Part shown: positions 6,185 to 45,852 of the stretch, piece after piece
How positions within the stretch are numbered: the first letter of the stretch is position 1
Layout of the letters: every line of letters begins with the position of its first letter
Origin: Deltaproteobacteria bacterium
GTDB lineage: Bacteria > Desulfobacterota > Desulfobacteria > Desulfobacterales > Magnetomoraceae
Direction: 5' to 3'
Assembly: GCA_002753725.1 (NCBI GenBank)
Contig: PEAL01000001.1
Coordinates: 1 to 51,167 of the forward strand
DNA: 51,167 bases
Notes under the pieces: model-generated
The model's database searches: none
What the model saw: the letters and a program-made list of their open reading frames with translations, nothing else
What the model was told of the DNA's origin: nothing
Program-made: the position numbers and the translations under genes

Positions 6185-7570
6185 ATGAAACAATATAAAG
6201 ATATTTCAAATAAAATTCCTAATAATTCCATGGCAATTATTCTGGAAAGTATATCCGATGGTGTTTTTACCGTTGATAAAAATTGGCGCATAACATCTTT
6301 CAACCGTGCTGCTGAGGAAATTACAGATATTTCAAAAAAAGATGCGATTGGTGTCTATTGTTGTGAAGTTTTTCGCTCCAATATGTGCAATGATGAATGC
6401 GCGTTGCGTCAAACAATTGAAACAGGAAAGCCCATCGTAAACAAGTTGGCATTTATTATCAATGCGAAAGGTAAACGAATCCCAATTAGTGTCTCAACAG
6501 CTTTATTGCGAGATGACACGGGGCAGGTTGTTGGAGGTGCAGAAACATTTCGTGACTTGAGTCTTGTAGAAGAACTTCGACGAGAATTAAAAGCCCAATT
6601 TCAAATTGGTGACATTATTAGTCAAAGCCCGGCAATGAAGCAATTTTTTGATATATTACCACAAATTTCAGCCAGCGAAAGCAGTGTATTAATTCAAGGA
6701 GAAACAGGCACCGGAAAAGAACTGACTGCAAAAGCTATCCATAATTTAAGTTATCGAAAAAATAAGCCTTTTATTGCATTAAACTGTGGCGCACTTCCAG
6801 ATAATTTATTGGAATCTGAATTGTTTGGTTATAAAACTGGCGCTTTTACAGGTGCAACAATGGATAAACCAGGGCGATTTGCGCTGGCAGAAGGCGGAAC
6901 GTTATTTCTTGATGAAATCGGGGAGGTCAGTAAAGCACTTCAGGTTAGACTTTTAAGAGTTTTGCAAGAAAAAACCTATGAACCACTGGGTGGAACCAAA
7001 ACGATTCATGCCAATGTTCGAATTATTGCTGCTACAAATAGAGATTTATCCGACCTGGTGAAACTGAAAAAGTTTAGACAGGACTTGTTCTATAGAATCA
7101 ACGTTGTTAAAATTGAATTACCCTCATTAAGAAAAAGAAAAGAGGATATCCCGCTTCTGATTGACCATTTTATCAAGCGGTTTAATCGATTTCAAAGTAA
7201 ATCCATCACCGGAATTTGCCAGGAAGCGATGTCGCTTCTACTGGCACATGATTATCCAGGAAATATTCGAGAGCTTGAAAATATTATTGAGCATGCCTTT
7301 GTTTTATGTCACAAAGGAGACATTTTACTCAATCATTTGCCGGATGATTTTGTCACTGATATAAAACGTCCACTATCAGAATCCTCAACCATTACTGAAT
7401 CCATTCGTGCCGTTGAGATTCAAGGCCTGCTTGATATTCTTAAGCGCAATAATTATAACCGACTCGCAACCGCTCGTGAATTAGGAATTCATAAAACGAC
7501 ATTGTTTAGAAAATTGAAAAAATTAGGTATAAAACTCCCGGAAACTGATGGTCGATCAAGTCGACAGTGA
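6185..7570 (+). CDS. Sigma-54-dependent transcriptional activator (PAS sensor, AAA+ domain, Fis-type HTH; no receiver domain)
   Basis: Walker A GETGTGKE, ESELFGY, the GAFTGA sigma-54 contact loop, and a C-terminal HTH ATARELGIHKTTLFRKLKKLGI. The N-terminal PAS carries Cys59-Cys60-x7-Cys68-x3-Cys72. Confidence 0.92.
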   Translation: MKQYKDISNKIPNNSMAIILESISDGVFTVDKNWRITSFNRAAEEITDISKKDAIGVYCCEVFRSNMCNDECALRQTIETGKPIVNKLAFIINAKGKRIPISVSTALLRDDTGQVVGGAETFRDLSLVEELRRELKAQFQIGDIISQSPAMKQFFDILPQISASESSVLIQGETGTGKELTAKAIHNLSYRKNKPFIALNCGALPDNLLESELFGYKTGAFTGATMDKPGRFALAEGGTLFLDEIGEVSKALQVRLLRVLQEKTYEPLGGTKTIHANVRIIAATNRDLSDLVKLKKFRQDLFYRINVVKIELPSLRKRKEDIPLLIDHFIKRFNRFQSKSITGICQEAMSLLLAHDYPGNIRELENIIEHAFVLCHKGDILLNHLPDDFVTDIKRPLSESSTITESIRAVEIQGLLDILKRNNYNRLATARELGIHKTTLFRKLKKLGIKLPETDGRSSRQ

Positions 7571-7836: not shown

Positions 7837-7911
7837 CGAGCCGAGGGGGAGATTCTTTATTGCTAATAGCATTTAATCATGTTACCTCCTGCTCATGCGA
7901 AAGAGTCAATC

Positions 7912-9090
7912 ATGAATGTGAAATATATTCATACCGGATGGTTGATTGATGGCACCGGACAAGATATTCAAAAAGATAGGGTGCTGACCATTCTCAATCA
8001 TACGCTTGTATCAATCGATCCTGTCAACCAGGATTTAATAAAAAAAATCACGCTTGATTTATCCAGACATACTATTTTACCGCCACTGATTGATGCACAT
8101 GTTCATTTATCCATGTCCGGGACACTTGATTTAAATCGTCGCCAATCTCAATTGAAGATGGATTTTCATGACGCACAACAATTGATTGTTCACCATTTAA
8201 ATACGTATCATGCATCAGGTATTTCAGATGTTCGTGATGGTGGAGATCACTGTGGACATACCCATCGTTTTAAGCAAACAAAAAAGCATTGTGTTCAGAT
8301 CCATTCTCCTGGAGTGGGCTGGCATCGAGAAGGTCGATATGGATCGTTTGTGGGGAAAGGAATTCCAGAAAATGAAAAATGTTTACATCATATCAAGACC
8401 TTTCAAGACATAGATCATATTAAAATTATTTTATCAGGTATGAATAGCTTGAAAACGTTTGGAAAACAGACGCCTGAACAGTTCTCCAGGAAAGATATGT
8501 CTGCCATTTGTCAGTGGGCTTATAAAAACAACACGCCTGTGATGGTGCATGCCAATGGTGAACATCCTGTTCATATAGCTATTGAATCAGGATGCTCTTC
8601 CATTGAACATGGTTACTTTATGGGGTCAGAAAATTTAAAAAAAATGGCTGATCAACAAATTTTTTGGACCCCTACATTGATTCCCATGTATACACTATCT
8701 GAGTACCTGGACAATCCAACAGAAAAAGACATCGCCCTGCGAACCTTTGATGATCAATGCAAGCAACTCATAAACGCTAAAACGTTGGGCGTTCCTGTTG
8801 TTTGCGGAAGTGATGCCGGAAGTTACGGCGTTGATCATGGAAAAAGTTTATTTGATGAACTTCAACTATTTGTCAGATGCGGATATTCTTTACCTCAAGC
8901 CATTCAATCCTGTACCTCCCTGAGCAACAAACTTTTGCGCAGTAAATTATCTGGAACACTTCAAAAAGGTGAACCTGCAAGGTTTATTGCAATAGAGGCA
9001 TCACCTGATAATTTTGTGGAAACGAGATCCCATCTTCATCCTCTGTTTCAGATGTTTGACGAATATTATGATGATTATCAAGTAGCTTGA
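7912..9090 (+). CDS. Metal-dependent amidohydrolase family protein
   Basis: PPLIDAHVHL metal-binding motif, later VMVHANG and CGSDAG. The start is chosen at the ATG preceded by AAAGAG; the ORF track starts at 7879. Confidence 0.8.
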   Translation: MNVKYIHTGWLIDGTGQDIQKDRVLTILNHTLVSIDPVNQDLIKKITLDLSRHTILPPLIDAHVHLSMSGTLDLNRRQSQLKMDFHDAQQLIVHHLNTYHASGISDVRDGGDHCGHTHRFKQTKKHCVQIHSPGVGWHREGRYGSFVGKGIPENEKCLHHIKTFQDIDHIKIILSGMNSLKTFGKQTPEQFSRKDMSAICQWAYKNNTPVMVHANGEHPVHIAIESGCSSIEHGYFMGSENLKKMADQQIFWTPTLIPMYTLSEYLDNPTEKDIALRTFDDQCKQLINAKTLGVPVVCGSDAGSYGVDHGKSLFDELQLFVRCGYSLPQAIQSCTSLSNKLLRSKLSGTLQKGEPARFIAIEASPDNFVETRSHLHPLFQMFDEYYDDYQVA

Positions 9091-12000
9091 ATTTTGCCAG
9101 TTGCGCTTTTAATTGATCAGACTGACCGGACAGTTCTGTTGCAGCGGATGCTGTTTCTTCACTCTGAGAGCTGATATTTTGAACGGCTGTAGAGATCTGG
9201 CCCATACCATCATTGATTTGTCCCATTGCCTGGGTTTGTTCCTTACTCGCTACCGCAATATCGGCAACCAAATCTTTAACTTTCAGAACGTTTTCCACCA
9301 CCTGCTCAAGGGCAATGCCTGTTCGTTCGGAAATCTGTACCCCTTCCATAGCCTTTTTATTAGAATTATCTATCAATTCAGCGGTTTCTTTTGCTGCCTG
9401 AGCACTTCTTCCCGCTAAATTTCTAACTTCCTGAGCAACGACAGCAAAGCCTTTGCCATGCTGTCCGGCGCGTGCAGCTTCAACAGCAGCATTTAGTGCC
9501 AGAATATTGGTTTGAAAGGCGATTTCATCGATCACTTTGATAATTTTTGAAATATTTTGAGCAGAATCATTGATTTCTTTCATGGCCTGACTCAAATGAT
9601 TCATTTCTTTCTGTCCGGTCGTTGCGGCCTGATTGGTTTCAGCAACCAGGGCATTGGCCATATCGGCATTTTCCGCATTTTGGCGAATTTGACGATCTGT
9701 TTCATGAATACTTGAAGATATCTCTTGAACAGATGCAGCCTGTTGTTGAGAACTTTCAGCCAGGTGCTGACTGGCAGAATTAAGCTGGATAGCTGATGCA
9801 GATACGTTTTTTGAAACATCGGCCACTTGTTCGAGAATTTGATTCAAAGAGGATAGTGTATTGTTTATCGCCTCTTTGATCATGGCATGATCCCCCTGAT
9901 AGTCTCCGTTGACTGTCAGGGTTAAATCTCCCTCAGAAATTCGTTCCAGAATAATTTGTGCTTCTTTGATCGGCATTAAAACAGCATCCAGGGTCTCATT
10001 GATCCCTTTGACAATCTTTGCAAAATCACCCTGATGCTTGCTGTCATCCGCCCGTGTATCCAAATGCCCGGAAATGGCAGCATTAACCAGGACATTGGCA
10101 TCTTTGATCAGATTGTTGACAGCATCGATACACATATTGAGATTGGTATTGAGTTTTCCAAAATCACCCTTTGCCTGCTCAGTAATTTTTTCTGGAATTT
10201 CTCCCCGACTGATCATGGCAACATAATTTTGAATGCGACGCAACGGCTGGACAAAAGCTTCGACAATATTATTGACATTCGTTACCAGCTCGCGATAATT
10301 GCCGGTAAACAGTTCTGCATCACCCCGTTGACTGAAATCACCATTGTTGATGGATTGGATGATTTCTACAATAGCCTTGTTGATATCCCGTTCACCACTG
10401 ACATTCAAAACAAATTCAATAGCACCAGTAACATGCCCCTGATGATCTTTGATTGGAAATCCTGTATATCGGATGGGTAAATTTATACCTTCAGGATCAG
10501 CAATGGTATCTGCTGTACATCCCTGTTGCGTGGTCATTGCCTTGTGGCAGGCACAGTCATTGGTTTGACAATGACTTGTTTTGAAAAAGGAGTAACATTT
10601 TTTACCAACAACATCTTTGATCGATAGTCCAAGAACATTCAATCCTGCATGATTCATATATTTGATCGAATAATCGTTATCGATTTCCATGACCGGTGTG
10701 GGCAGATGATCCAAATTGTAGAGTAAAGCTCGCTGCCCCATAACCATCTCATTCAAAGCTGTTCCCAATGTACCTGTTTCATCCTTGTTATCCATTGTTA
10801 ACGTGATTTCTTTATTACCCAATCGAATCTTTTCAATGAATTGAATAATCTTTTGAATCGGGCTCATCAAGCTTTTTGTCATGAGTAATGAAACCAATAA
10901 AATACCAAGAATTGAAAGCAACATAATCGCAACAATAACTTTTTGCATAACGTACACCGGAGCAAAGGCTTCAGCACAATCTATTTCAGCAATCAAAGCC
11001 CAGTTACACCCAAATACAGTCAATGGAGAGAAAGCAGACAAGACCCAGTTATTGTTATAATCTTTTATGATTTTTTCACCCTTTTTTCCAGATAAAGCGG
11101 TTCGACTGGCTTCTGTGTCAACCGTTCCTTTGGATGGATTGCGAAAAGAGGCTTCAACAGAGTGATCTGTCGGGTCTAAAAAAGAATCCGACCGCATGCG
11201 TTTATCTTCACCCACCAGATACGTTTCACCAGTGCTGCCCATGCCCTCACGTTGCTGCATGATCGTATTGATCGCTTTCAGTGACAGCTGAAGTCCAACG
11301 ATCATATCAACTGTATCGTTTTGAAGGATAGGTTGTGCAATGAATGCTGCGGGTTCATCATTGATCGGCGCATAGGGTTCAAAATCAGCAAAACCAAAAC
11401 TTTTTGTTTGAGTCACATTTTTAATGAGTTTTCCAAGTCCTGAATTGGCATATTTGCCATTGACCAGATTGGAATGATAATCTGCTGCTCTGTGAGTGGT
11501 ATAAAAAACAAAGCCATTGGAATCAATCAAAAATAATTCGCGATAATTATATGCTTCAATATACTGTTGACAAAAATCTTTAATTTGGCCTTCTTTTTTA
11601 TGGGCAATGTTTTCTTCAATGGATTCAGTGGTCAAGATGGCCCAGTTCAAGCTTTGAAGGCTGAGCGGTTCGTAGATAATGATTTTGAGATTGCCTTTTT
11701 CATCATTTTGCCAGGCCGTGCCTTTTTTTCCATTCAGTGCTTTTTTGGCAAAATCATCAGATATCGGCATTCCGATATCTCCTCTGTGAATCACACGATT
11801 GCTGCACAAACGCATGTTTCCATCCAGTTGTCCCACCAGAAAGCTTTCTCCTGTTTTTCCCATACCGGAACGATGTTGAATAATATCATTAATTTTTTGG
11901 ATAGGTACTTGAATGGCAATAATACCGATAAGGTTGTTTTGAGAACGAACAGCCCCTGCCATAAAAAGACTTTGCATATTGTCCGATGGTGCATAAGGCT

Positions 12001-12649
12001 GAAAATCCGACACCGCAATTTCGACCGTTTTAGCATTTTGAAAAACCAAGGCAAGACCTGAACCTTTTAAATTTCCTGTCAATAAATTTTGTCCTAAATC
12101 AGCCTTTTTTTCAACGGTATAAACAATATCGCCACCGGGGCTGATTAAAAAGACATCATCATAATTGAAATCTTGTTTAATATCTTTAAAAACAGCGCTG
12201 AATTCGCTTTCTATTTTCAGCCAATCCGCTCCACCGATGATTCTATCGTTTTTTAAAAACGCCTGATTAAATTTATGAATGGCAAGAGCTGAAAAGGGAT
12301 TATCTTTTAATGCATGAACCGTATTTTCAACCGTTTGAAAGGTTGCTTCCAATTGATGTTTTTTAAGCATCTGGATGGTTTCAAGTCGTTTTGAAGCCTT
12401 GTCTTTTATGCTTTCAATGGTTTGAGTCAGTACGTTCAAGTCGCCTTTACGCTCTTGAAAAAATTTCTGTATTTGTGCTTTTTTTATTTCACGAATACTT
12501 TCTAATTGCATAAACGATTGTTTTTTTAATGCTTTTTCTGCATTGTTTAAACAAAGATATTCTCCGATAGCCAGAGGAAAAATACCAACTATCAAGAATG
12601 CCACGACAAATTTTATTTTTAGACTGAGATTTTTTATTCGCAGGATCAT
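8984..12649 (-). CDS. Methyl-accepting chemotaxis protein with tandem double-Cache-like periplasmic sensor, HAMP, Cys-rich PAS, four HAMP-like repeats and MA domain
   Basis: Two periplasmic repeats of the Cache pattern (DFQPYAPS ... GMGKTGESFLVG and DFEPYAPI ... GMGSTGETYLVGEDKRMRSDS) lie between two TM helices. The signalling hairpin is [40 protein letters not shown]. The start is set at ATG 12649 (AAGGA RBS), because the ORF-track start at 12694 lies inside a hairpin. Confidence 0.9.
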   Translation of the reverse strand: MILRIKNLSLKIKFVVAFLIVGIFPLAIGEYLCLNNAEKALKKQSFMQLESIREIKKAQIQKFFQERKGDLNVLTQTIESIKDKASKRLETIQMLKKHQLEATFQTVENTVHALKDNPFSALAIHKFNQAFLKNDRIIGGADWLKIESEFSAVFKDIKQDFNYDDVFLISPGGDIVYTVEKKADLGQNLLTGNLKGSGLALVFQNAKTVEIAVSDFQPYAPSDNMQSLFMAGAVRSQNNLIGIIAIQVPIQKINDIIQHRSGMGKTGESFLVGQLDGNMRLCSNRVIHRGDIGMPISDDFAKKALNGKKGTAWQNDEKGNLKIIIYEPLSLQSLNWAILTTESIEENIAHKKEGQIKDFCQQYIEAYNYRELFLIDSNGFVFYTTHRAADYHSNLVNGKYANSGLGKLIKNVTQTKSFGFADFEPYAPINDEPAAFIAQPILQNDTVDMIVGLQLSLKAINTIMQQREGMGSTGETYLVGEDKRMRSDSFLDPTDHSVEASFRNPSKGTVDTEASRTALSGKKGEKIIKDYNNNWVLSAFSPLTVFGCNWALIAEIDCAEAFAPVYVMQKVIVAIMLLSILGILLVSLLMTKSLMSPIQKIIQFIEKIRLGNKEITLTMDNKDETGTLGTALNEMVMGQRALLYNLDHLPTPVMEIDNDYSIKYMNHAGLNVLGLSIKDVVGKKCYSFFKTSHCQTNDCACHKAMTTQQGCTADTIADPEGINLPIRYTGFPIKDHQGHVTGAIEFVLNVSGERDINKAIVEIIQSINNGDFSQRGDAELFTGNYRELVTNVNNIVEAFVQPLRRIQNYVAMISRGEIPEKITEQAKGDFGKLNTNLNMCIDAVNNLIKDANVLVNAAISGHLDTRADDSKHQGDFAKIVKGINETLDAVLMPIKEAQIILERISEGDLTLTVNGDYQGDHAMIKEAINNTLSSLNQILEQVADVSKNVSASAIQLNSASQHLAESSQQQAASVQEISSSIHETDRQIRQNAENADMANALVAETNQAATTGQKEMNHLSQAMKEINDSAQNISKIIKVIDEIAFQTNILALNAAVEAARAGQHGKGFAVVAQEVRNLAGRSAQAAKETAELIDNSNKKAMEGVQISERTGIALEQVVENVLKVKDLVADIAVASKEQTQAMGQINDGMGQISTAVQNISSQSEETASAATELSGQSDQLKAQLAKFKLLDNHHNIRQTSETEDEDGISFPQNYQVMPLLQ

Positions 12650-12684
12650 AGATTTTATCCTTAATTTTATAAGGGAGCGGGGGA

Positions 12685-12722
12685 GTGGGCACATCTTTTA
12701 TGGCAAACGAAAATGTGCCCAC
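12685..12722 (-). other. Intercistronic stem-loop between the two chemoreceptor genes
   Basis: GTGGGCACAT (12685-12694) pairs perfectly with ATGTGCCCAC (12713-12722), with an 18-nt loop. It starts 8 nt after the upstream receptor stop. No U-tract follows on the transcribed strand. Confidence 0.6.
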
Positions 12723-12729
12723 CATTTAT

Positions 12730-15700
12730 TTAGAATTCACCAAAACCACGTTCATCAGTATCTAAGGGTAAGATATCTTTTGGCGATTTTCGATGGGGAT
12801 AGTTTTTAGCGATCAATTTTTGCGATGGTGCCTTGACAGGCACTTTTTTCATTTCAGGGCCACGGCCTGACATTTTTTCATTTTTAATCAACTGAAATTT
12901 TGCCAATTGTGACTTTAAATCTTCGGATTGTGATGTCAATTCTGTTGCAGCGGAGGCTGTTTCTTCACTCTGAGAGCTGATATTTTGTACCGCTGTATTG
13001 ATTTGTCCCATGCCCTCATTGATCTGTCCCATGGCGTGGGTTTGTTCCTTGCTGGCCGTTGCGATCTCAGCCACAAGATCTTTGACTTTCATAACATTGT
13101 CCACAATTTTTGTCAGGGCTTCTTCTGTCCGACCGGCAAAATTTACACCCTCATTCACCTTTTTATTTGATCCTTCAATCATTTCCGCTGTTTCTTTTGC
13201 CGCCTGAGCACTTCGACCGGCAAGATTTCGAACTTCTTGTGCCACAACAGCAAAGCCCTTTCCATGTTGGCCAGCACGCGCAGCTTCAACGGCCGCATTC
13301 AATGCCAGGATATTGGTCTGAAAAGCAATTTCATCGATCACCTTGATAATTTTTGAAATATTTTGAGATGCTTCAAAAATTTCTTCCATAGCTTTGCTCA
13401 GTTGTTGCATTTCACCCTGACCGGTTGTGGCGGCTTGATTGGTTTCGCTGACCAATTGATTGGCCATATCGGCGTTATCAGCATTTTGTTTGATTTGTTG
13501 ATCGGTCTGATGAACACTGGCTGTAATTTCTTCAACCGATGCGGCTTGCTGCTGTGCACCTTCGGAAAGGTTGTGACTGGCCGATGTCAACTGATTGGCC
13601 GATGCTGCCACATTATCTGAAACTTCACCCACTTGATTCAGTATATCATTCAATGATGACAGGGTGTTGTTAATAGCATTCTTGATAATGGCATGATCGC
13701 CCCTATACTCACCGGTTACAAATTTCGTCAATACGCCATTGGAAATATTTTCCAGGATATCCTGGGCATCTTTGATGGGCAAAAGAATGGCATCCAATGT
13801 ATCATTGATACCTTTGACCACTTCGGCAAAATCTCCCTGGTGCCGGCTGACATCTGCGCGTGTATCCAGTTTTCCATCCAGGGATGCCTGCACCAGTTGT
13901 TTGGCATCCTTGACCAGACGATTAACCGCATCGATGCACATATTGAGATTGTTATTGAGAATTTCAAAATCACCTTTGGCCTGTTCAGTGATCGGTTCTG
14001 GAATTTCTCCACGGCTGATCTTCGCGACGTATTCCTGTATACGTTTCAGGGGGGTCACAAAGGCATCGACAATCTTGTTAACGTTATTAACAAGATCCGC
14101 ATAATTTCCAGTGAATTGACTGGCATCACCACGCATGCTGAAGTCACCATTATTGATAGAATTGATCATCTTGACAATCGCCTGATTGATTTTACGCTCT
14201 CCACTGACATCCAGAACAAACTCAATGGCACCAACAATATTTCCTTTGAGATCTTTGACAGGAGAACCCGTATAGCGGATTGGTAAATCCAAACCTGTGG
14301 GGTCAGCAATGGTATCAGCCGTGCAGACCTGATCCATGTTCATGGCTTTATGGCAACAGCATTCTGCGGTTTGACAATGACTGGTTTTAAAAAATGAATA
14401 ACATTTTTTACCGACAATATCTGACTGGGGAAGATTCAACAACTCACGCCCCGCTTTGTTGATATAAAGAATTGTGTAATCCCGATCAATTTCCATTAAT
14501 GGTGTGGGTAAATTTTCAAGATTATTGATCAGTTTTTGGGTTTCTGTGACCATCTGGTTGAGACCTTCAGACATAATACCGATTTCATCCTTACTATCAA
14601 CATCTAAGGTCAACACGTCTCCTGCCCGAATACGCTCAATAAAAGCAACAATTTTTGAGACCGGATGGCTGATACTTCGTGCAATAAACCAGGAAAAAAA
14701 CAATCCCAGGCCAATGGCGATCAGTGTAAATGTAATGGCCATACTATTGGCGGCGGTCACCTGGGATTCCATTTGTTCATATTGCCCCTGTTGGACGTTA
14801 TTGGTCGTTTTTTGGGCATTTCGAGCGGCATCCACCATGTTCGTCATAGCAACTTTTTGTTTTTCAATCATTTCAAATAATTCTTCAAAAGAGGTATAAT
14901 AGTGTTCAATACCAGTAATGATGGTTTCCACTTTGTCGATATTGTTTTTGTTTTTGAATCGGGATTTTAAATCTTGACAGAGCTCAATCATTGTTTTGAT
15001 ATTTTTTTCAACATCAAGATGATATTTTTTATCTTCTGAAATCAAAAAGTTTTTTTCAGCCTGTCTGGCGGCTAAAAACCGTTTGATCAAACGATTGGCA
15101 TCATCGGCTTTGGCCATTTTATCGTCTAAATTTTGGATAAACGTATTTTGAACAATTTCCAGTTCTTTCTTTTGCCCCTGTCGGATCGCAACAATGGCGT
15201 CCATTGTTGCAGTGGCAGCCTGAGCCATTTTGGTTTTGTCATCAGGGTTGTTGGATTTCAAGAATCGCAAAACAGCATTTTCATAATTACGATAGTTTGC
15301 AATCACCTGATTGGCTTGCTGAATATTGGCTGGATTTGAAAAACGATTTTTCAAATCTGTTGCCAAAGCAAACAATTGCCGATTCAATTCCTGCCACTGG
15401 GATAGAACGCTGGTATTACCTTCCATCATCACCATGCGATACCCTTTTGCCTCAAGCATATATTTAACCATCTGGTTGGCATCATCTGCTTTTGACAGTT
15501 TATCTTGAACATTTTTCAAATTGTCTTCTTTAATTTTTACAAGCTCGTTTTTTTGTTGCTCGCGAATGGTTTCACATTCTTTTAAGGCATTGCGTGCATT
15601 GTTTTGCATCGTCTCCAATAAAGATGTCTTCTGATTGGCAAATGCAACATATGTTTCAAAGGATTTGAGATATGTTTCACCGGCAGTAATGACTTCTTTC

Positions 15701-16020
15701 ATAGATTGGATATCAACATCCCGCTTGAAGTTTTTTTGTGTCTCCTTTGCCTGTTGAATCAATTTTTTATTAATATTTTCAACTTCTTTGATGCACACTG
15801 GATCTTTTCGAATAATAAAATTCTTTTCCTGTTGGCGAGACGATAAAATCATTTGCGTTAATTTATTCGTACCATCAACATTGTCAATGCGATTGGTTAC
15901 GCTATGCAGGCTGTTCAGACCGACACCTGCGATAAGCACTAATAAAAGTAAAACAATGATAAACCCCATAAAGATTTTAACACCAATTTTCAAATTTTTA
16001 AAAATAGCTATCATGATCAT
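12730..16020 (-). CDS. Methyl-accepting chemotaxis protein with helical bimodular-type periplasmic sensor, HAMP, Cys-rich PAS, four HAMP-like repeats, MA domain and C-terminal GFGEF pentapeptide
   Basis: N-terminal TM helix, then about 385 aa of helical periplasmic region with an internal repeat ([11 protein letters not shown] / [11 protein letters not shown]; [13 protein letters not shown] / [13 protein letters not shown]), then a second TM helix. The cytoplasmic half is paralogous to the downstream receptor. AAGGAG RBS precedes ATG 16020. Confidence 0.9.
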
Positions 16021-16096: not shown

Positions 16097-16606
16097 TTAT
16101 TCTTTTCCGGTTATTTCCCGGAGTTGATCGATATCAATTCGTTGAGCGGATAACAGTTGCGAAAGGGAGATAATAAAACTGACCTGTTCATTCCTCTTTC
16201 CCATCCCCTGAATGATACCATCGCCTTTGCCATACTTGGGTGGCTCAATCTTATTTTTTGGAATTTCAAGCACATCCTTGACGCGATCCACCATTAGACC
16301 GGTAGGAACCTCATCAATTTCAACCACAATGGTGCAGGTGCGGTCATCATACGCTTTTTTAGGTAGTCCGAACCGCACTCGAACATCCATCAAAGGCACT
16401 ACTTTCCCCCGCAAATTGATCACACCAGCAAGATATGGGGGCATATCCGGTGCTGGAATAATTCGCTGGTTGGTGACAATTTCAGTTACCGTTTCAATAC
16501 AAACAGCATATTCTTCTGTATCCACCTCAAAGGTCAGATACATGTCCTCTATACTGTCTTCATCATCAACCGCTTCATGAGCGAATTTTTGGGATTTTTC
16601 CGTCAT
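16097..16606 (-). CDS. cheW: Chemotaxis coupling protein CheW
   Basis: 169-aa single CheW domain (YLTFEVDTEEYAV ... VINLRGKVVPLMDVR ... IVVE ... GLMVDRV). Strong AGGAGG RBS. Confidence 0.9.
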   Translation of the reverse strand: MTEKSQKFAHEAVDDEDSIEDMYLTFEVDTEEYAVCIETVTEIVTNQRIIPAPDMPPYLAGVINLRGKVVPLMDVRVRFGLPKKAYDDRTCTIVVEIDEVPTGLMVDRVKDVLEIPKNKIEPPKYGKGDGIIQGMGKRNEQVSFIISLSQLLSAQRIDIDQLREITGKE

Positions 16607-16824: not shown

Positions 16825-18324
16825 ATGAGGATGAAAAACAAGGAGAAAAATGGATATATGAAAGATTCATTTACAGATATGTCTTTTGAGCGGTTTCAAA
16901 AACTCATCCTTCAGCGTACAGGTATTATATTTGGCGAACGCAGACGAAATGAATTGAAACGTCATGTTCTGACAACCACAAAAAAACAGGACGCATCTAA
17001 TATAGACCATCTTTACCGACGGCTGTCAGAATCACCGACCGATAGTCCTATCTGGGATTTTTTTATCGATACCATCATTGTTGGTGAAACCTATTTTTTT
17101 CGTGAAGAACTTTTGTTTCAGGCATTGCGTCATAAAATTTTGCCAGAAATTATTGCCCGACATGAAAAAGATCGAAGCATGCGGATTTGGAGTGCTGGAT
17201 GTTCAACCGGCGAAGAACCCTATTCCCTCGCAATATTAATGGATCAACTGTTAGGGGCAGATATCAAAAACTGGCATATTTTTATTCTGGCAACAGATAT
17301 CAATAAACCTTCCCTAAAAAAGGCTATTGATGGTCACTATCGAAGCTGGTCCCTTCGACAGACATCCAAAACAATCATTTCAACATACTTTAAAGAAAAA
17401 AAAGACAGATTTCATATTCGCGAAGATATTCAAAAACGGGTGATGTTTTCTTATCTGAATCTGAACAATCCCGTATATCCATCTTTAGCCACCTGTACTC
17501 ATGCGATGGATTTAATTTTGTGGCGTAATGTTGCCATATATTTTACGGATGATGTCATTCAAGACGTTCTTAAACGGTTTTATCGGTGTTTACTGCCATC
17601 GGGCTACTTTAATATTGGTGCTTCCGAAGCTGCTCATATGAGTGCCACACCATTTATTGCAAAACAATTTTCAGGCACGTTTATTTATCAAAAAGACCAG
17701 CCAGCAATGCCAAGCTTAACGCAAACGATCAAACCCATTCAACCCAAATATCCCCCCGACACAAAAAATAATTTTTCCGCAGATCAAAATGTCAACGTTA
17801 ATCCTTCAATTGTCTCCACAACAAAGGTAAAAACAGAATCCTCGTTATCTTTCCTTGAACAGGCGGAACAACATGCCCAAAACCAACGATACACAGAGGC
17901 GGTTCAGGCCTATAAATCCCACCTGTCCATTTATTCAAATGATGCCAAAGCATGGTTTCAAATGGCACGCGTTTATGCCAATAATGGAGATTTGAAGCAT
18001 GCAAAAGAGGCATGTACCCATGCGATCAAGTACGATCCATTGATTGTAGAGGCATATTATATTCAAGGGTTGATTAATGAAGAAGATGGCAAGCTTGAAG
18101 AAGCTATTGCTGATTATAAGAAAACATTATACCTGAAGCCCGATTTTGTGCTGGCACATTATCATCTGTCTTGTGTTTATCAACAAACACAAGAGGATGC
18201 AATGGCTGATCGTCATCGCACCCAATCCATTCGAATCTTGTCACAACGCCCATCGGATGAAAATATTCCTGGAGCCGATGAATTGACTGTCGGACAATTG
18301 TTGGCTTTATTAACGGGTAATTGA
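16825..18324 (+). CDS. cheR: Chemotaxis protein methyltransferase CheR fused to C-terminal TPR repeats
   Basis: GETYFFRE and the SAM-binding motif RIWSAGCSTGEEPYSLA. The C-terminal ~150 aa carry TPR-like repeats (AKAWFQMARVYANNGDLKHA ..., VEAYYIQGLINEEDGKLEEAI ...). The start is uncertain among ATGs at 16825, 16831 and 16858. Confidence 0.88.
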   Translation: MRMKNKEKNGYMKDSFTDMSFERFQKLILQRTGIIFGERRRNELKRHVLTTTKKQDASNIDHLYRRLSESPTDSPIWDFFIDTIIVGETYFFREELLFQALRHKILPEIIARHEKDRSMRIWSAGCSTGEEPYSLAILMDQLLGADIKNWHIFILATDINKPSLKKAIDGHYRSWSLRQTSKTIISTYFKEKKDRFHIREDIQKRVMFSYLNLNNPVYPSLATCTHAMDLILWRNVAIYFTDDVIQDVLKRFYRCLLPSGYFNIGASEAAHMSATPFIAKQFSGTFIYQKDQPAMPSLTQTIKPIQPKYPPDTKNNFSADQNVNVNPSIVSTTKVKTESSLSFLEQAEQHAQNQRYTEAVQAYKSHLSIYSNDAKAWFQMARVYANNGDLKHAKEACTHAIKYDPLIVEAYYIQGLINEEDGKLEEAIADYKKTLYLKPDFVLAHYHLSCVYQQTQEDAMADRHRTQSIRILSQRPSDENIPGADELTVGQLLALLTGN

Positions 18325-18334: not shown

Positions 18335-18949
18335 TTACTCATTATCCTTTTTCAATCCTATTAATCGATAGACCAGCATTCCGGACAGCCAGGCGATATC
18401 TTCAGGCGATAATATTTCGTGAATATTATCAGGAAAAAGAATGTTGGCTTCAGGCGGGAATTCTTCATCCCCTTCCCACATCACAATTTGCATGGCAATA
18501 TTGGGTAAAATCTGAAATTCGAGGCCAAGATCACCAAACTCAATGGGACGCGCATTGAGTTTATGGGCGACATGTTTCAAAATTTTCAGTTGTTTGCCAA
18601 AAACCTTTTTTAATGGATCAATCGCCCGCTTAACAAAAGCGCTGAAATAAAATGATGCCCCTGGAATTTCTCGATAGGCAATCCATCGACTGGATTCTTT
18701 TTGCGGTCTGCCACTCAAATAATGAAGCAACAATACCTGCTCTTGAACTGGAATTTCATGTTCATCCTCAGATTGAAATTGAAAATTCGGATACTTAACA
18801 ATATAGATTCGATTTAAAAAAGGAATATAAAAGTTTTCACCATCAGCAGGATCAAAACCACTGTAAGTAACAATGGTTTCAAAGGCGATAGCCGATAATT
18901 TTTCTGCTGCAAGTTTTCTTGCATTTTCATAATCGTCAATGCGTGCCAT
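18335..18949 (-). CDS. DUF3786-like protein
   Basis: The pattern LLLHYLSG ... WIAYREIPGASFY ... FVKRAIDPL ... VMWEGDEEFPPEANILF ... SPEDIAWL resembles the DUF3786 family as I recall it. No search was run. Confidence 0.5.
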   Translation of the reverse strand: MARIDDYENARKLAAEKLSAIAFETIVTYSGFDPADGENFYIPFLNRIYIVKYPNFQFQSEDEHEIPVQEQVLLLHYLSGRPQKESSRWIAYREIPGASFYFSAFVKRAIDPLKKVFGKQLKILKHVAHKLNARPIEFGDLGLEFQILPNIAMQIVMWEGDEEFPPEANILFPDNIHEILSPEDIAWLSGMLVYRLIGLKKDNE

Positions 18950-19028
18950 TTTTTCCTCCCTGATAAGCGGTACATCAATCTTTTCTCTTATCTGTCATTT
19001 TTGACATTACTCTCATTAAACACTAAAG

Positions 19029-19766
19029 TCAAACGTGGCAGTTATTTAAAACCGATATCTTTAAAAAATTATTTTTCAGCCATGCCAAAGCACGTTCAAG
19101 CCATTGCAAATCTCCATCAAAAGAGCAATGCATATCCAGTTTTTCTGAAAACAGTTGATCGTTTACCGCGTAATCTTGAAATGAATCAATATCATAACAA
19201 CACATAAAAAATAATTTTTTTTGATCAGCCGACAAATCTTTTATGCCCGCTTGATTTTTTACAGCAATGATTTCAAGCATTCGGTCGTTATAGTTGTCAT
19301 CATTGGCCAGTTCCTGGGAATCCAGCCATTTTTCCAGTGTCTGTTCACACAGAAACCCTTTTTGATCATTATGTCCCATACAGTGAGCTTCTTTCATCAG
19401 CATATAGGATGCTGAAATTTTTCCAGTCTCCCGGGATCGGGAAACCAATCGTGCCAGAGGATAGTATCGACAGGATGCCGGACGATCTGGATACACCAGA
19501 CATCCTTCCTCTGAAACAAAGATACACCTAAGATCCATGTGCGATTTGGTTTTCAACACAACAACGGGCAATCCCGTTTCTGGACCGATGTAAGTGCGTG
19601 TGTATGTTTTTAAAAATATCGATGAATCGATCTGAAAATGGTGTTTCAATCGAATGATATCATAAGGCGTCAAAATTTGATGAAGATCCTGACAGCACGC
19701 GTTGAAGCACTGAATCTTCGGATGACATCGGAAAAAAAATACTTGCTCGGGAAATATATTTATCAT
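19029..19766 (-). CDS. YkgJ-family (CxxCxxCC-type) cysteine-cluster protein
   Basis: N-terminal FFFRCHPKIQCFNACCQDL cluster plus later Cys residues (CIFVSEEGCLVYPDRPASCRYYP), typical of the putative Zn/Fe-chelating UPF0153 family. Confidence 0.6.
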   Translation of the reverse strand: MINIFPEQVFFFRCHPKIQCFNACCQDLHQILTPYDIIRLKHHFQIDSSIFLKTYTRTYIGPETGLPVVVLKTKSHMDLRCIFVSEEGCLVYPDRPASCRYYPLARLVSRSRETGKISASYMLMKEAHCMGHNDQKGFLCEQTLEKWLDSQELANDDNYNDRMLEIIAVKNQAGIKDLSADQKKLFFMCCYDIDSFQDYAVNDQLFSEKLDMHCSFDGDLQWLERALAWLKNNFLKISVLNNCHV

Positions 19767-20153: not shown

Positions 20154-20591
20154 ATGCCAAGTTTTGTCATTCAAGAAAAATGTGATGGTTGTAAAGGTGG
20201 GGACAAAACAGCCTGTATGTACATTTGCCCCAACGACCTGATGGTATTGGATGCAGATGCCATGAAAGCTTATAATCAAGAACCCGATCAATGCTGGGAA
20301 TGCTTTTCTTGCGTAAAGATTTGTCCGTCTCAGGCTATTGAAGTACGTGGATATTCTGACTTTGTGCCATTAGGAAGTAGCGTAATGCCAATGTTGGGAA
20401 CAGAAGATATTATGTGGACATGCAAGTTCAGAAATGGAACTGTCAAACGATTTAAGTTCCCTGTTCGTACAACTGCGGAAGGTTCAGCCAACGCTTATTT
20501 GGATCTGGTTGGTAAAGATCTGGATAGTGGTCTTCTTTCAACTGAAGAAGTTGATGGCTTAGTGTTACAGGGTCCCATCGCCACTGTGTAA
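20154..20591 (+). CDS. aprB: Adenylylsulfate (APS) reductase beta subunit
   Basis: MPSFVIQEKCDGCKGGDKTACMYICPNDLM and CWECFSCVKICP ferredoxin-like clusters. Size and position directly upstream of aprA fit. AGGAGG RBS. Confidence 0.95.
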   Translation: MPSFVIQEKCDGCKGGDKTACMYICPNDLMVLDADAMKAYNQEPDQCWECFSCVKICPSQAIEVRGYSDFVPLGSSVMPMLGTEDIMWTCKFRNGTVKRFKFPVRTTAEGSANAYLDLVGKDLDSGLLSTEEVDGLVLQGPIATV

Positions 20592-20647
20592 GGGAATTTT
20601 GTTCATTAACAAAGCAAAGAAAGAATTAATTTTTAGGAGGATTTAAG

Positions 20648-22621
20648 ATGGCATTACCAAACAAACCAAAGGGCGAAATTAAAGCGATTCGCGACCCCCA
20701 GGTTGAAGAACGAGAAGTTGATATTCTTATCGTTGGTGGTGGAATGGCTGCCTGCGGTACAGCATTTGAAGTCAAAAAATGGGCTGGCGACAAAAAAATC
20801 TTGCTGTGTGACAAAGCAGCCATGGAACGTAGTGGTGCTGTAGCTCAAGGTCTTTCAGCAATCAATACATACATTGGCGACAACACATCTGACGATTATG
20901 TCCGCATGGTTCGAAACGACCTGATGGGTATTGTTCGTGAAGACTTGATTTTTGACCTTGGCCGTCATGTGGATGACTCTGTACATCTGTTCGAAGAATG
21001 GGGCCTGCCAGTTTGGAAAAAAACCGACGACAACAAAAACCTTGATGGTAAAAAAGGCCAGAAAATGGGCTCCTTAAAAGGTGGAGCCAAACCTGTTCGC
21101 ACCGGTAAATGGCAGATCATGATCAACGGCGAATCTTACAAAAGAATCGTTGCTGAAGCTGCTAAACTGGCTCTGGGCGAAGAAAACATTCTGGAACGCG
21201 TTTTTATCGTTGAATTGTTGCTTGATGCAAATGTTGAAAATCAAATTGCCGGCGCAGTTGGTTTCTCAACACGTGAAAATAAAGTGTACATCATCAAAGC
21301 TAAAACAATGATGGTTGCTTGTGGTGGCGCTGTAAATATTTACCAACCCCGTTCAGTGGGTGAAGGTAAAGGTCGTGCATGGTATCCAGTATGGAACGCA
21401 GGTTCTACATACACAATGTGTATGAAAGTCGGTGCTGAACTTTCCATGATGGAAAACCGTTTCACCCCTGCTCGATTCAAAGATGGTTACGGCCCTGTTG
21501 GCGCCTGGTTCTTACTGTTCAAAGCTAAAGCATTGAATGGTCTGGGCGAAGTCTATGTTGCAAGTGACGCAGCCAAAAAAGAACTTGAAAGCTATGCACC
21601 TTATGGCACAGCAGCGATTACGCCTACTTGCTTGAGAAACCACCTGATGCTTTTTGAAATGAAAGCCGGTCGTGGTCCGATCATCATGGATACAGTTTCT
21701 GCTCTGGCTGAACTTGGAAAGAGCATGGACAAAAAAGAACTCAAGCATCTGGAATCAGAAGCATGGGAAGACTTTTTGGATATGACTTGCGGCCAGGCAA
21801 ACCTCTGGTGTGCAACTGACACAGAACCAGAAAAGAAAAATTCTGAAATTATGCCCACAGAACCTTATCTGTTGGGATCACATTCAGGATGCTGCGGCTT
21901 GTGGGTTTCTGGACCAAATGAAGATTGGGTACCGGCTTCTTACAAATGGGGCGACAAAGGCAAAATTTATAACAGAATGACCACCGTTAAAGGTCTGTTC
22001 ACCGCTGGTGATGGTGTGGGTTGTTCCGGTCATAAATTTTCTTCAGGTTCTCATGCTGAAGGCCGTATTGTTGCAAAATCAATGGCACAATACGTTCGAG
22101 ATCATGCAGATTTCACCCCGACATTGGCACAGTCCAAAGATGAACTGGTCGATCTGATTTACAAACCTGTTCGTCTGTATCTGGATAACAGTGCTTATAC
22201 AACAGATGTTGATATCAACCCCAATTATGTGAAACCGTCCGGCATGGCACTTCGTTTGATGAAAGCCACCAATGAATACGGCGCCGGTACAGCCACATAT
22301 TACCAGACCAGCAGCAAAAACCTGGAAATCGTAATGGAACTTCTCTCTGTTATGCGCGAAGACAGCGAAAAAATGGCCGCCGGTGACCTTCATGAACTCA
22401 TGAGAGTTTGGGAAATCTATCACCGAATTTGGACCGTTGAATCGCATCTGCGTCACATTCAGTTCAGAAAAGAAACCCGTTATCCAGGATTCTACTATCA
22501 AGCAAATCATCCACAACAAGATGATGCAAACTGGTTCTGCTTTGTAAATTCAAAATATGATCCCAAAGCAGCAACATGGGAAGTCAAAAAAGAAGAATAT
22601 GTCAAAATCATTCCTGACTAA
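20648..22621 (+). CDS. aprA: Adenylylsulfate (APS) reductase alpha subunit
   Basis: 657-aa flavoprotein with FAD motif ILIVGGGMAACG, conserved blocks NRFTPARFKDGYGPVGAWFL and EPYLLGSHSGCCG. AGGAGG RBS. Confidence 0.95.
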   Translation: MALPNKPKGEIKAIRDPQVEEREVDILIVGGGMAACGTAFEVKKWAGDKKILLCDKAAMERSGAVAQGLSAINTYIGDNTSDDYVRMVRNDLMGIVREDLIFDLGRHVDDSVHLFEEWGLPVWKKTDDNKNLDGKKGQKMGSLKGGAKPVRTGKWQIMINGESYKRIVAEAAKLALGEENILERVFIVELLLDANVENQIAGAVGFSTRENKVYIIKAKTMMVACGGAVNIYQPRSVGEGKGRAWYPVWNAGSTYTMCMKVGAELSMMENRFTPARFKDGYGPVGAWFLLFKAKALNGLGEVYVASDAAKKELESYAPYGTAAITPTCLRNHLMLFEMKAGRGPIIMDTVSALAELGKSMDKKELKHLESEAWEDFLDMTCGQANLWCATDTEPEKKNSEIMPTEPYLLGSHSGCCGLWVSGPNEDWVPASYKWGDKGKIYNRMTTVKGLFTAGDGVGCSGHKFSSGSHAEGRIVAKSMAQYVRDHADFTPTLAQSKDELVDLIYKPVRLYLDNSAYTTDVDINPNYVKPSGMALRLMKATNEYGAGTATYYQTSSKNLEIVMELLSVMREDSEKMAAGDLHELMRVWEIYHRIWTVESHLRHIQFRKETRYPGFYYQANHPQQDDANWFCFVNSKYDPKAATWEVKKEEYVKIIPD

Positions 22622-22680
22622 TCGATCATCGTGGATACACGAAACAGGAATTTTTTCTGATATAATCATGAAATAAACAT

Positions 22681-22718
22681 AAAAAACCTCCAGGCACTTG
22701 GTGACTGGAGGTTTTTTT
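22681..22718 (+). terminator. Rho-independent terminator / attenuator downstream of aprA
   Basis: AAAAAACCTCCAG ... CTGGAGGTTTTTT forms a 13-bp stem with an inner CAC/GTG pairing, followed by a T-tract. It begins 60 nt after the aprA stop. Confidence 0.75.
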
Positions 22719-22796
22719 GAAATAAATTCCTGTACAGATATTCTGGTTGAAAAAAATTCCCCTTTTTTTACTTCAGGCGGTTTTTATAGTAAATAC

Positions 22797-22856
22797 AGTG
22801 GACAGTGTGGACGAAATGGACATTACAAAAAATGTCCATTTCGTCCATTCAGTCCA
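22797..22856. other. Large composite hairpin in the aprA-qmoA spacer
   Basis: GTGGAC-agtgt-GGACGAAATGGACAT-tacaaaaa-ATGTCCATTTCGTCC-attca-GTCCAC. It has a perfect 15-bp inner stem plus a 6-bp outer stem, about 105 nt upstream of the qmoA ATG. Confidence 0.7.
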
Positions 22857-22961
22857 CTCAATTCATTATATTGCCGCCTGGAGTGGGTTGTTTTGCTTTT
22901 AAGAGGGCAGAATAATTTTTTATCCAAAAGATATATCTTACAGGCAATAGAAAGGGATAGC

Positions 22962-24236
22962 ATGACAGACAAAGCGACGCCTCCAGTCAGTGCAAATATT
23001 CTGGTTGTTGGAGGTGGGATCAGTGGTCTGACAACGACGCTTGAAGCTGCTGAAGCCGGATATGAAGTCATTTTGCTGGAAAAAGAACCGTCATTGGGCG
23101 GTCGAGTATCCCAATTGCGACAATATTTTCCAAAGCTTTGCCCACCAACCTGCGGTTTAGAAATTAATTATCGCCGCATTAAAGATAACCCAAGAGTTAA
23201 CGTATATACACTGGCTGAAGTTGAAAATGTGGACGGTGTTCCCGGTGACTATACCGTTACAGTCCGCATGAATCCAAGATATGTTACCAGTGAATGCACC
23301 TGCTGCGGTGACTGTGAAAAAGCCAGCAAGACTGAAATCCCCAATGAATTCAATTTTGGCATGGATAAAACCAAAGGCGCTTACTTGCCGCATAACATGG
23401 CATTTCCGCAACGATATGTTGTTTCACCGCAAATTATCGGAACCGAGGATGCCCGACGATGCAAAGAAGCCTGTAAATACAACGCCATTGACCTTGAGAT
23501 GGAATCCAAAACCATCGATTTCAAAGTAGGCGCTATTGTATGGGCGACAGGTTGGGTTCCCTATGATGCCACACGTATTGAAAATTTGGGTTTTGGTCGC
23601 TATGACAATATCATTACCAACATGATGCTGGAACGATTGGCAGCAAAAAATGGCCCCACTCAAGGAAAGATTCTACGGCCATCGGATGAAAAAGCTCCGG
23701 AATCTGTAGCATTTGTACAATGTGCAGGCTCACGGGATGAAAATCATCTGCCTTATTGTTCCTACATTTGTTGTATGGCATCCTTAAAGCATGCCACTTA
23801 TATTCGGGAACAATATCCAGATACGGAAGTATTTATTTTTTATATTGATGTTCGGGCACCCGGTCAGCGATATGAAAAATTTTATGATAAGCTGAAAAAT
23901 GATGATAAGGTCTTTTTGATCAAAGGCAAAGTCGCTGAAGTTTCGGAAGATGCCGCTGGTAATATTACCGTTGTGGCTGAAAATGCAGTCACTGGCGAAA
24001 AAATCCGAAAAACAGTGGATATGGCTGTCCTGGCAACAGGCATGCAACCCACAACAGCCAGTGTCAAATTGCCGGCAGACCTGAATTATACAGATGACGG
24101 GTTTATAATCAATGACTTTGAAAAGGGCGGAATGTTCGCAACCGGTTGTGCCAATAAACCGGCTGATGTCGTTACTTCCAACCAGAATGCTACTGGTATG
24201 GCCCTGAAGGCGATTCAAACCCTGGTGAGGAGGTAA
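22962..24236 (+). CDS. qmoA: Quinone-interacting membrane-bound oxidoreductase subunit A (HdrA-like flavoprotein)
   Basis: MTDKATPP...ILVVGGGISGLTTTLEAAEAGYEVILLEKEPSLGGR FAD fold, located downstream of aprBA. The start is moved to ATG 22962 because the ORF-track N-terminal extension crosses the terminator and hairpin. Confidence 0.9.
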   Translation: MTDKATPPVSANILVVGGGISGLTTTLEAAEAGYEVILLEKEPSLGGRVSQLRQYFPKLCPPTCGLEINYRRIKDNPRVNVYTLAEVENVDGVPGDYTVTVRMNPRYVTSECTCCGDCEKASKTEIPNEFNFGMDKTKGAYLPHNMAFPQRYVVSPQIIGTEDARRCKEACKYNAIDLEMESKTIDFKVGAIVWATGWVPYDATRIENLGFGRYDNIITNMMLERLAAKNGPTQGKILRPSDEKAPESVAFVQCAGSRDENHLPYCSYICCMASLKHATYIREQYPDTEVFIFYIDVRAPGQRYEKFYDKLKNDDKVFLIKGKVAEVSEDAAGNITVVAENAVTGEKIRKTVDMAVLATGMQPTTASVKLPADLNYTDDGFIINDFEKGGMFATGCANKPADVVTSNQNATGMALKAIQTLVRR

Positions 24237-24239
24237 TCA

Positions 24240-26579: not shown

Positions 26580-26656
26580 ATCATGATTGATAAGTGAGCG
26601 TTGCTTATTGCTTAATATAACAACGAATCATTGAAAGAAAGAAAGGAATCAGGGGC

Positions 26657-28056: not shown

Positions 28057-28431
28057 TTATGCTTTCCATAAACCATGAAGATTACAGAATTCACGGGCTA
28101 TAATTGTATCAGCTTCAACAGGAAAGGTTGCTTCTGGTGTATCACCCGGGTTTAAGAATTGTCTGTAGGCTTTTCCACCTGCCAAAATTTCAATCCATTC
28201 AATAGAGTGTTTTTCGTCCATTGGATGAGCAACCTCACCCACTTTGACTTTAACACCACCAGGCACTTTTTCGATAACTGGCACATGTTTTTCTTTTGCT
28301 GCGTCAACCGTGTTTTCTTTCATAAAAACCATTGGTTTTCCGCAACATACGAGTTCTCCTGCTCCAGCATGGATAACCTCTACCATGTTGCCACATATTT
28401 CACATTTATATATTCCGAGTTTTTCCGCCAT
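28057..28431 (-). CDS. dfx: Desulfoferrodoxin (2Fe superoxide reductase)
   Basis: N-terminal desulforedoxin-like [10 protein letters not shown] ... CCGKPM, then an SOR domain (KHVPVIE ... [13 protein letters not shown] ... CNLHGLW). Confidence 0.93.
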
Positions 28432-41625: not shown

Positions 41626-41651
41626 TAAAATAAACGCAAAAGGAGCTTTTT

Positions 41652-42434: not shown

Positions 42435-42442
42435 AGTAAGTT

Positions 42443-43423: not shown

Positions 43424-43439
43424 ATTAAGGAGCATCATT

Positions 43440-44168: not shown

Positions 44169-44171
44169 CAA

Positions 44172-45850: not shown

Positions 45851-45852
45851 AT

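Follow-up and report, generated by a model that had tools for sequence, protein, structure and literature searches.

Cysteine-triad PAS domains as candidate iron–sulfur redox sensors in two paralogous chemoreceptors of a Magnetomoraceae bacterium

The DNA considered here, hereafter called the window, is a stretch of 51,167 nt from Deltaproteobacteria bacterium (Magnetomoraceae; assembly GCA_002753725.1, contig PEAL01000001.1, positions 1–51,167), and it encodes two transmembrane chemoreceptors, or methyl-accepting chemotaxis proteins (MCPs), each with a Cys-rich PAS domain in its cytoplasmic part. Judging from open reading frames (ORFs) and Pfam matches, MCP1 (8984..12694, minus strand, 1236 aa) is composed of a double dCache domain, HAMP, the Cys-rich PAS domain, two HAMP_2 domains, and MCPsignal, and MCP2 (12730..16020, minus strand, 1096 aa) of HBM, HAMP, the Cys-rich PAS domain, HAMP_2, and MCPsignal. 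The PAS domain sits between HAMP and HAMP_2 in both receptors, namely at 10385..10717 in MCP1 (minus strand, residues 660–770; Pfam PAS_4/PAS_9 at 661–768) and at 14191..14523 in MCP2 (minus strand, residues 500–610; Pfam PAS_4/PAS_9 at 501–609). The original prediction had placed a Cys-rich block in these two ranges, and it is indeed there, but on the minus strand; translation of that strand gives the quoted blocks (NLDHLPTPVMEID in MCP1 and its paralogue in MCP2), whereas translation of the plus strand gives nonsense with stop codons. A gene for CheW (Pfam; 16097..16606, minus strand) immediately precedes those for MCP2 and MCP1 in the same orientation, and cheW-mcp2-mcp1 is probably one operon, while a CheR-TPR methyltransferase (Pfam; 16825..18324, plus strand) is encoded divergently from cheW. 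Also encoded in the window is a sigma-54 activator (6185..7570, plus strand, 461 aa), in which Pfam recognizes PAS_9 (24–126), Sigma54_activat (144–311), and HTH_8 (407–447); its PAS domain corresponds to residues 17–128 (6233..6568, plus strand).

The Cys residues in or near the PAS motif are C700, C709, C714, C716, and C726 in MCP1 and C540, C549, C554, C555, C556, and C566 in MCP2. Three of those in MCP1 form the motif C700-x8-C709-x4-C714 (10553..10597, minus strand; codons at 10595–10597, 10568–10570, and 10553–10555), with H708 (10571–10573) inside the motif as a candidate fourth ligand and the semi-conserved extra Cys, C716 (10547–10549), just outside of it. Likewise, the motif C540-x8-C549-x4-C554 in MCP2 (14359..14403, minus strand; codons at 14401–14403, 14374–14376, and 14359–14361) is accompanied by H548 (14377–14379) as the candidate fourth ligand and by the extra C555 and C556 (14353–14358). 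In the activator, C59, C60, C68, and C72 are encoded within 6359–6400 as predicted, and the triad consists of C59 (6359–6361), C68 (6386–6388), and C72 (6398–6400), with E61 at 6365–6367. The C-x8-C spacing is common to both MCPs and the activator, with the third Cys shifted by a single residue (x4 versus x3), again as noticed before. The PAS domains of MCP1 and MCP2 are 68% identical to each other, and each is 25% identical to that of the activator. The similarity between the two MCPs comes from the receptors being tandem paralogues, since their whole cytoplasmic parts (621 aa) are 69% identical; their periplasmic domains are unrelated to each other.

With the two MCP PAS segments as the query, an exhaustive profile search over 1.84 billion representatives (clusters at 50% identity) gave 12142 matches at E<=1e-3, 2211 at E<=1e-10, and 224 at E<=1e-30; in word-indexed homologue searches, the 111-aa PAS domain found no match and a 65-sequence profile found four short fragments. 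Among 139 near-full-length domains in the top 150 proteins, Cys occupies the Cys1, Cys2, and Cys3 columns at 99%, 98%, and 99%, respectively. Relative to Cys1, Gly at position –3 (100%) and Lys at –1 (94%) are also conserved in these domains; relative to Cys2, so are Thr at –3 (91%) and Thr at +2 (89%), and position –1 is occupied by His in 73% and by Asp in 19% of the domains. The family motif can be written as G-x-K-C-Y-x-[LF]-F-K-T-x-[HD]-C-x-T-x-x-C. In a 65-sequence alignment of members 25–68% identical to the PAS domain in the window, N22, G38, C41, C50, and C55 are the only invariant columns. When all of the PAS domains detectable in the ORFs of 79 genome loci were counted, furthermore, C-x8-C-x4-C was present in 364 of 392; the other 28 belong to other types of PAS (approximately 30 bits versus approximately 150 bits), and a single high-scoring domain was found without one of the triad Cys. 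The conservation of these Cys residues is far beyond chance.

The other Cys and His residues are much more variable. The Cys of the C-x-C pair (C716 in MCP1 and C556 in MCP2) is kept in 50% of the 139 domains, the fifth Cys (C726/C566) is kept in 13%, and H717/H557 is not conserved. A ligand set of 4–5 Cys plus 2 His had been proposed, but the set actually conserved is three Cys with His or Asp before Cys2; conservation holds for the triad and does not extend to the fourth Cys (about half) or to the fifth. As to a fourth ligand, 248 motif instances were examined, in which Asp/Glu at position +2 (68%), His/Asp before Cys2 (92%), and Cys two residues after Cys3 (57%) are the candidates, and at least one of them is present in 245 instances. 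The subgroup nearest to the window (58–62% identical) keeps the three Cys and the His only. We also considered the C-A-C-H stretch as a site for c-type heme, but this was rejected, given that the His is not conserved, the fourth Cys is conserved in about half, and the domain is cytoplasmic.

In terms of output, the family is mainly one of chemoreceptors: MCPsignal was found in 117 of the top 150 representatives, none of which has a sigma-54 AAA+ domain, and in 47 of 58 family proteins in a Pfam sample. The non-MCP members of the top 150 are mostly fragments, together with three giant hybrid histidine kinases: a protein of 4799 aa with approximately 30 PAS domains (P0081), a protein of 2440 aa in which a 4HB sensor is followed by eight HAMP_2 units (P0089), and a protein of 1709 aa (P0129). 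In genomes, one protein has 1–7 copies of the Cys-containing PAS domain with a mode of five, and 5–7 near-identical tandem copies occur in many soluble MCPs; indeed, the typical member (e.g., L004 4858–7950, and most of the loci L001–L079) is a soluble MCP with 5–6, at most seven, tandem Cys-triad PAS domains. The family is distributed mainly in Desulfobulbales, Desulfocapsaceae, and Desulfobacterales and further in Pirellulales, Thermoguttaceae, Sedimentisphaerales, Myxococcota, Gemmatimonadaceae, Verrucomicrobiota, and Halochromatium. No dedicated model for it was found in NCBIfam or Pfam, where only generic PAS models match. In the course of the analysis, we noticed further Cys-rich PAS variants in ORFs of the loci L040, L043, L046, L069, and L033 (upstream of MCPs) and of L018, L021, and L052. 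One of the variants, GKKCY-x-x-F-...-C-x2-C-P, has Cys1 at the same position as the triad family, and another has H-C-Y-D-C-W...R-I-C-D-x-C; these variants point to a wider range of metal-binding PAS families that differ in spacing. A Cys-PAS variant spaced C-x10-C-x2-C was likewise observed.

A Cys triad of this kind has been characterized in OrpR (DVU2106) of Desulfovibrio vulgaris Hildenborough, a sigma-54 activator with the architecture PAS-AAA+-HTH (helix-turn-helix), in which the Cys residues of the PAS domain, C52, C61, and C65 (C-x8-C-x3-C), are fully conserved and Asp/Glu is conserved at position 54 (PMC8359166). Deletion of the PAS domain or replacement of all three Cys with Ser makes the orp expression constitutive with the loss of redox control, and UV–vis and electron paramagnetic resonance spectra of anaerobically purified OrpR indicate the conversion of [4Fe-4S]2+ to [3Fe-4S]1+ on mild oxidation; the three Cys are 5–8 Å apart in the authors' model (PMC8359166). 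OrpR acts on divergent, adjacent orp operons through a 17-bp palindrome (PMC8359166).

The activator in the window has the same Pfam architecture (N-terminal PAS, sigma-54 AAA+, and C-terminal HTH) and the same pattern, C59-x8-C68-x3-C72 plus E61 at position +2, with C60 at a variable position. The triad is kept in all of its 120 best homologues (248 PAS domains, 1–3 per protein), which share the pattern C-x-[DE]-[IV]-F-x-[SA]-x-x-C-x3-C. These homologues belong to Desulfobacterales and Desulfobulbales, and the 460-aa forms are 59–80% identical to the activator in the window. Two of them, P0202 (70%) and P0221 of Desulfonema magnum (67%), are encoded beside orp-like genes: the neighbors of the former are DUF5320, Nitro_FeMo-Co, and two CbiA/Fer4 genes, as in the make-up of an orp operon, and those of the latter are DUF5320 and Nitro_FeMo-Co. 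Neither orp genes nor MCPs are found beside the closest homologue, P0153 (80%), or beside P0199 (70%), showing that OrpR-type regulators also occur away from orp operons. The activator in the window differs from OrpR in the same way, with no orp-type genes and no match to the OrpR palindrome found within the window. Judged from its motif and architecture, nonetheless, the activator is a member of the OrpR family and a predicted redox regulator. The statement in the original prediction that the motif is not a characterized PAS cofactor site was therefore wrong for the activator, in that C-x8-C-x3-C with Asp/Glu at +2 is the OrpR signature (PMC8359166). The PAS domains of the MCPs do not have that signature but have C-x8-C-x4-C with Ser at +2.

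How, then, are the two types of PAS related? In hhalign, the MCP type and the OrpR type were aligned over 106 columns with a probability of 99.7% (E 3e-25), and Cys1, Cys2, and Cys3 were all in register with one single-residue gap after Cys2. The MCP PAS domain in the window scores 56 bits on the hidden Markov model (HMM) of the activator type and the activator PAS domain 66.6 bits on that of the MCP type, whereas the generic Pfam models PAS_4/PAS_9 score only 35–50 bits as compared with these cross-HMM scores of 56–67. By profile comparison, the MCP PAS domain is thus homologous to the OrpR-type PAS domain beyond generic PAS similarity. Both share the local pattern C-x-[DE]-hydrophobic-F-x-[TS]-x-x-C with the Cys at the same topological positions; in contrast, the MCP type has x4 instead of x3, His/Asp before Cys2 where the OrpR type has a hydrophobic residue, an output in chemotaxis instead of transcription, and frequent tandem arrays. 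The two types are separate sister subfamilies, approximately 25% identical and mostly with one output class each. One soluble MCP of 601 aa (P0127) has an x4-type PAS domain (GKYCYDLFRTDDCRTSNCAC) and an OrpR-type x3 PAS domain (TCQEVFKSNICHKNC) in tandem upstream of MCPsignal, and no other x3 motif was found in the top 150 MCP-type representatives.

In AlphaFold2 models, the PAS domains of MCP1 and of the activator adopt the canonical PAS fold with confidence scores (predicted local distance difference test) of 95.5 and 92.0, respectively, and in the predicted secondary structure of both models, E-alpha begins with Cys1, the E-F loop contains Cys2, and F-alpha is N-capped by Cys3. In heme-PAS proteins, the ligand of heme is at the N-terminus of F-alpha. 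Because of that, and because the HMMER alignment puts Cys1 opposite the flavin-adduct Cys of the phototropin LOV domain, the triad would line the canonical PAS cofactor pocket. Foldseek hit only generic cofactor-binding PAS domains (DosP, LOV, and NifL; TM-score of 0.75–0.83 and identity of <=20%), and the nearest match in a profile search of the PDB sequences was DosP with E of 1.7e-5. No solved structure of the MCP PAS family was found among the top PDB matches, which were generic heme/flavin PAS domains with <=20% identity. With flavin-containing PAS domains of the LOV and Aer type, the MCP PAS domain shares the fold and, in the case of LOV, the position of Cys1, but it differs from Aer (FAD) and LOV (FMN–Cys adduct) in having KCYSFFKT and no GXNCRFLQ.

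Based upon the conservation of the triad and the homology with OrpR, the best explanation overall would be that the MCP PAS domain is an iron–sulfur redox sensor in paralogous two-input receptors that drive taxis, to which we assign a probability of roughly 0.5. The original list of candidates for the cofactor (an iron–sulfur cluster, a metal, or a thiol switch, with a redox or O2 cue) can be narrowed, and homology with OrpR makes an iron–sulfur cluster responding to redox or O2 the leading one. MCP1 and MCP2 would each combine a periplasmic ligand cue, detected by its own domain (double dCache or HBM), with a cytoplasmic redox cue detected by the same PAS domain. The triad would hold the cluster, probably of the [4Fe-4S] type, in the PAS cofactor pocket, and one of the irons would be bound by a non-Cys or variable residue, namely H708 or C716 in MCP1 and H548 or C556 in MCP2, and would be labile for that reason. 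Upon a rise in redox potential or the entry of O2, the cluster might be oxidized or lost, re-shaping the E-F loop and F-alpha. In the 139 domains, the C-terminal D-[IV]-[TS] has Asp in 90% and Thr/Ser in 95%, which we take to be the “DIT” linker through which PAS cores are coupled to the helices that follow. Via this D-I-T/S linker, the change would then reach the array of HAMP_2 domains and the tip that controls the kinase, and CheW would relay it to a CheA encoded elsewhere, so that swimming is biased and redox/energy taxis results, with adaptation presumably supplied by CheR.

Several points weigh against this reading. For the MCP PAS family, the putative iron–sulfur cofactor is deduced from homology, and even in OrpR, the placement of the cluster and its ligands have been deduced from mutants and spectra of the full-length protein, not from a structure (PMC8359166). 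The spacing between Cys2 and Cys3 is one residue longer than in OrpR, and Asp/Glu, the candidate fourth ligand in OrpR, is replaced by Ser in the MCPs of the window. A Cys3–His site, moreover, is typical of zinc as well. Also, Cys-containing hits are favored in the top 150, since Cys residues raise the score against the query profile, although this bias is partly offset by the count of PAS domains in the 79 loci and by the set of activators, which was picked mainly through the AAA+ domain.

The triad and the His/Asp could instead form a structural zinc or other single-metal site stabilizing the E-F loop, where the PAS domain either senses something else or is a passive spacer or dimerization module. 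Three Cys and one His are a classic ligand set for zinc, and a structural repeat could be what the 5–7 near-identical tandem copies of many soluble MCPs represent. An enhancer-binding protein with a Zn/Fe-binding Cys/His GAF sensor is known, furthermore, in PexR (PMC12754779). We nevertheless consider structural zinc unlikely, given that iron–sulfur spectroscopy and redox-dependent function have been described for OrpR in the sister family (PMC8359166). The position of the triad in the canonical cofactor pocket also argues against it, as does the nature of the fourth residue. An alternation of His and Asp at such a fourth position is commoner in iron–sulfur and catalytic sites than in structural zinc sites.

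Rather improbable in our view is a three-Cys iron–sulfur cluster with an open or exchangeable fourth position that senses sulfide/polysulfide, nitric oxide, or O2 directly. This is the case in the PAS domain of Bacillus licheniformis NreB, where a [2Fe-2S] cluster with three Cys and a labile –SH ligand senses sulfide (PMC13478379). It would agree with only three Cys being invariant in the MCP family, with the relevance of sulfide gradients to a sulfate-reducing host (aprBA-qmoABC), and with the NreB Cys lying in the corresponding stretch, ahead of the short helix that leads up to the third strand. The near-invariant His/Asp beside Cys2, however, argues for a fourth ligand derived from the protein. 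In NreB of Staphylococcus carnosus, the PAS domain has [4Fe-4S] bound at C-x2-C-x11-C-x2-C (PMC13478379). NreB and the MCP PAS domains are thus alike in having Cys in the loop/short-helix part of a PAS domain located in the cytoplasm, and only three Cys are conserved in the Bacillus form, but NreB differs in its spacing, C-x2-C-x11-C(-x2-C), its histidine kinase output, and its hosts, Firmicutes; no specific sequence relation between them was detectable, and no NreB chain was among the PDB profile matches.

PAS sensors with thiol switches are known, ArcB being an example, and the Cys of the MCP PAS domain are closely spaced in a flexible loop. A metal-free switch in which these Cys form reversible disulfides on oxidation is, however, very improbable, because three invariant Cys with rigid spacing and a conserved His/Asp are the pattern of a metal site and because the homologue OrpR carries a cluster (PMC8359166).

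Among chemoreceptors, Aer2 of Pseudomonas aeruginosa and Vibrio resembles the MCPs in the window as a presumed gas/redox receptor with PAS between HAMP domains upstream of MCPsignal, but Aer2 is soluble and contains heme b, whereas the MCPs in the window are transmembrane proteins with periplasmic sensors and the Cys triad. The matches of Aer2 to the MCP PAS domain are indeed weak and N-terminal (E 1.5) and were below the cut-off in another search. DcrA (c-type heme) and DcrH (hemerythrin) of Desulfovibrio vulgaris are also chemoreceptors of a sulfate reducer, thought to mediate O2/redox avoidance (PMC13401364); their sensor domains and cofactors are unrelated to the MCP PAS domain.

The original prediction had emphasized that one sensory site is plugged into two outputs, transcription and taxis, encoded within 10 kb of each other. 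This is valid at the level of the superfamily, where the Cys site is homologous, but not at this locus, where the two PAS domains belong to separate lineages. In the 79 loci, CheW adjoins the Cys-PAS MCP in 57, and an OrpR-type activator was found near the MCP in none; the 25 sigma-54 activators located upstream are all of the receiver-domain (REC) type, and the closest homologues of the activator adjoin orp or unrelated genes, not MCPs. The 10-kb closeness is therefore not conserved. In Desulfobulbales, we noticed the order of response regulator, REC-type sigma-54 activator, small ORF, triple-CheW protein, and then MCP. Whether the activator and the MCPs are functionally linked was also considered, and such a link was rejected: sigma-54 –24/–12 sites occur at the level of chance (29 found versus 30 expected), the OrpR palindrome is absent, and the homologue with 80% identity has no MCP neighbors. 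The activator uses the sister module independently, and no functional tie to the MCPs is evident.

As regards novelty, the motif of the activator is already known from OrpR, whereas the MCP PAS domain is new in its spacing, the position of its candidate fourth ligand, and its output, and is widespread. We found no paper on the MCP PAS family in the literature covered, i.e., open-access papers and bioRxiv, so that this absence is no proof. Within the same literature, OrpR itself was found only in the original paper (PMC8359166) and the later PexR paper (PMC12754779). A 2026 review on aerotaxis receptors does not mention iron–sulfur, Fe-S, or cysteine (PMC13401364), and a census of PAS domains in 2023 mentions NreB-type motifs as the only iron–sulfur ones. 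We tentatively suggest, as a possibility on which we would not yet insist, that the C-x8-C-x4-C PAS domains constitute a widespread, undescribed class of iron–sulfur chemoreceptors and the missing cytoplasmic sensor for redox, O2, or sulfide taxis in strict anaerobes (Desulfobacterota, anaerobic Planctomycetota, and Myxococcota). The cofactors known in energy taxis and aerotaxis are FAD (Aer), heme b (Aer2 and HemAT), c-type heme (DcrA), and di-iron hemerythrin (DcrH). If the triad binds an iron–sulfur cluster, it would be a fifth cofactor chemistry for taxis, spread over hundreds of clusters of anaerobe chemoreceptors, and would account for the ability of strict anaerobes to steer by redox state. 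The 5–7 tandem PAS domains might then act as multi-cluster, graded or cooperative redox gauges, and the single-PAS transmembrane MCPs in the window would integrate a periplasmic chemical cue with the redox state of the cell. Because the motif that defines the family is concrete, the idea of an iron–sulfur cluster is directly testable on one small, confidently modeled domain.

Elsewhere in the window, the core genes of sulfate reduction, aprB-aprA-qmoA-qmoB-qmoC, are located at 20154–27802, and those for desulfoferrodoxin (28057–28431) and rubrerythrin (28452–29027), both for oxygen defense, follow on the opposite strand; the presence of these genes identifies the host as a sulfate reducer. The top match to the PAS domains among contigs of one genome per species is 61% identical, and the species of the window, or at least these receptors, thus seem to be missing from the collection. 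The MCP family showed no linkage to the DUF3786, CxxCxxCC, amidohydrolase, or GT2 genes of the window. A DUF3786 gene is followed by a same-strand gene for a 245-aa CxxCxxCC-domain protein at 18335–19766, and a pair of the same gene sizes recurs 3' of the closest activator homologue (L080 5670–7112); the MCP-cheW-cheR block accordingly looks inserted or rearranged relative to L080. The amidohydrolase ORF (7879–9090, plus strand) and the 3' end of MCP1 (minus strand) overlap convergently by 107 nt (8984–9090), which may be real or may come from one stop or start call being off. A flagellar cluster at 40876–49540 encodes two rod proteins (flgF/flgG-like), flgA, flgH, flgI, flgN, and flgK, and an ORF resembling IrrE/M78 peptidases (45847–46440) sits inside this cluster.

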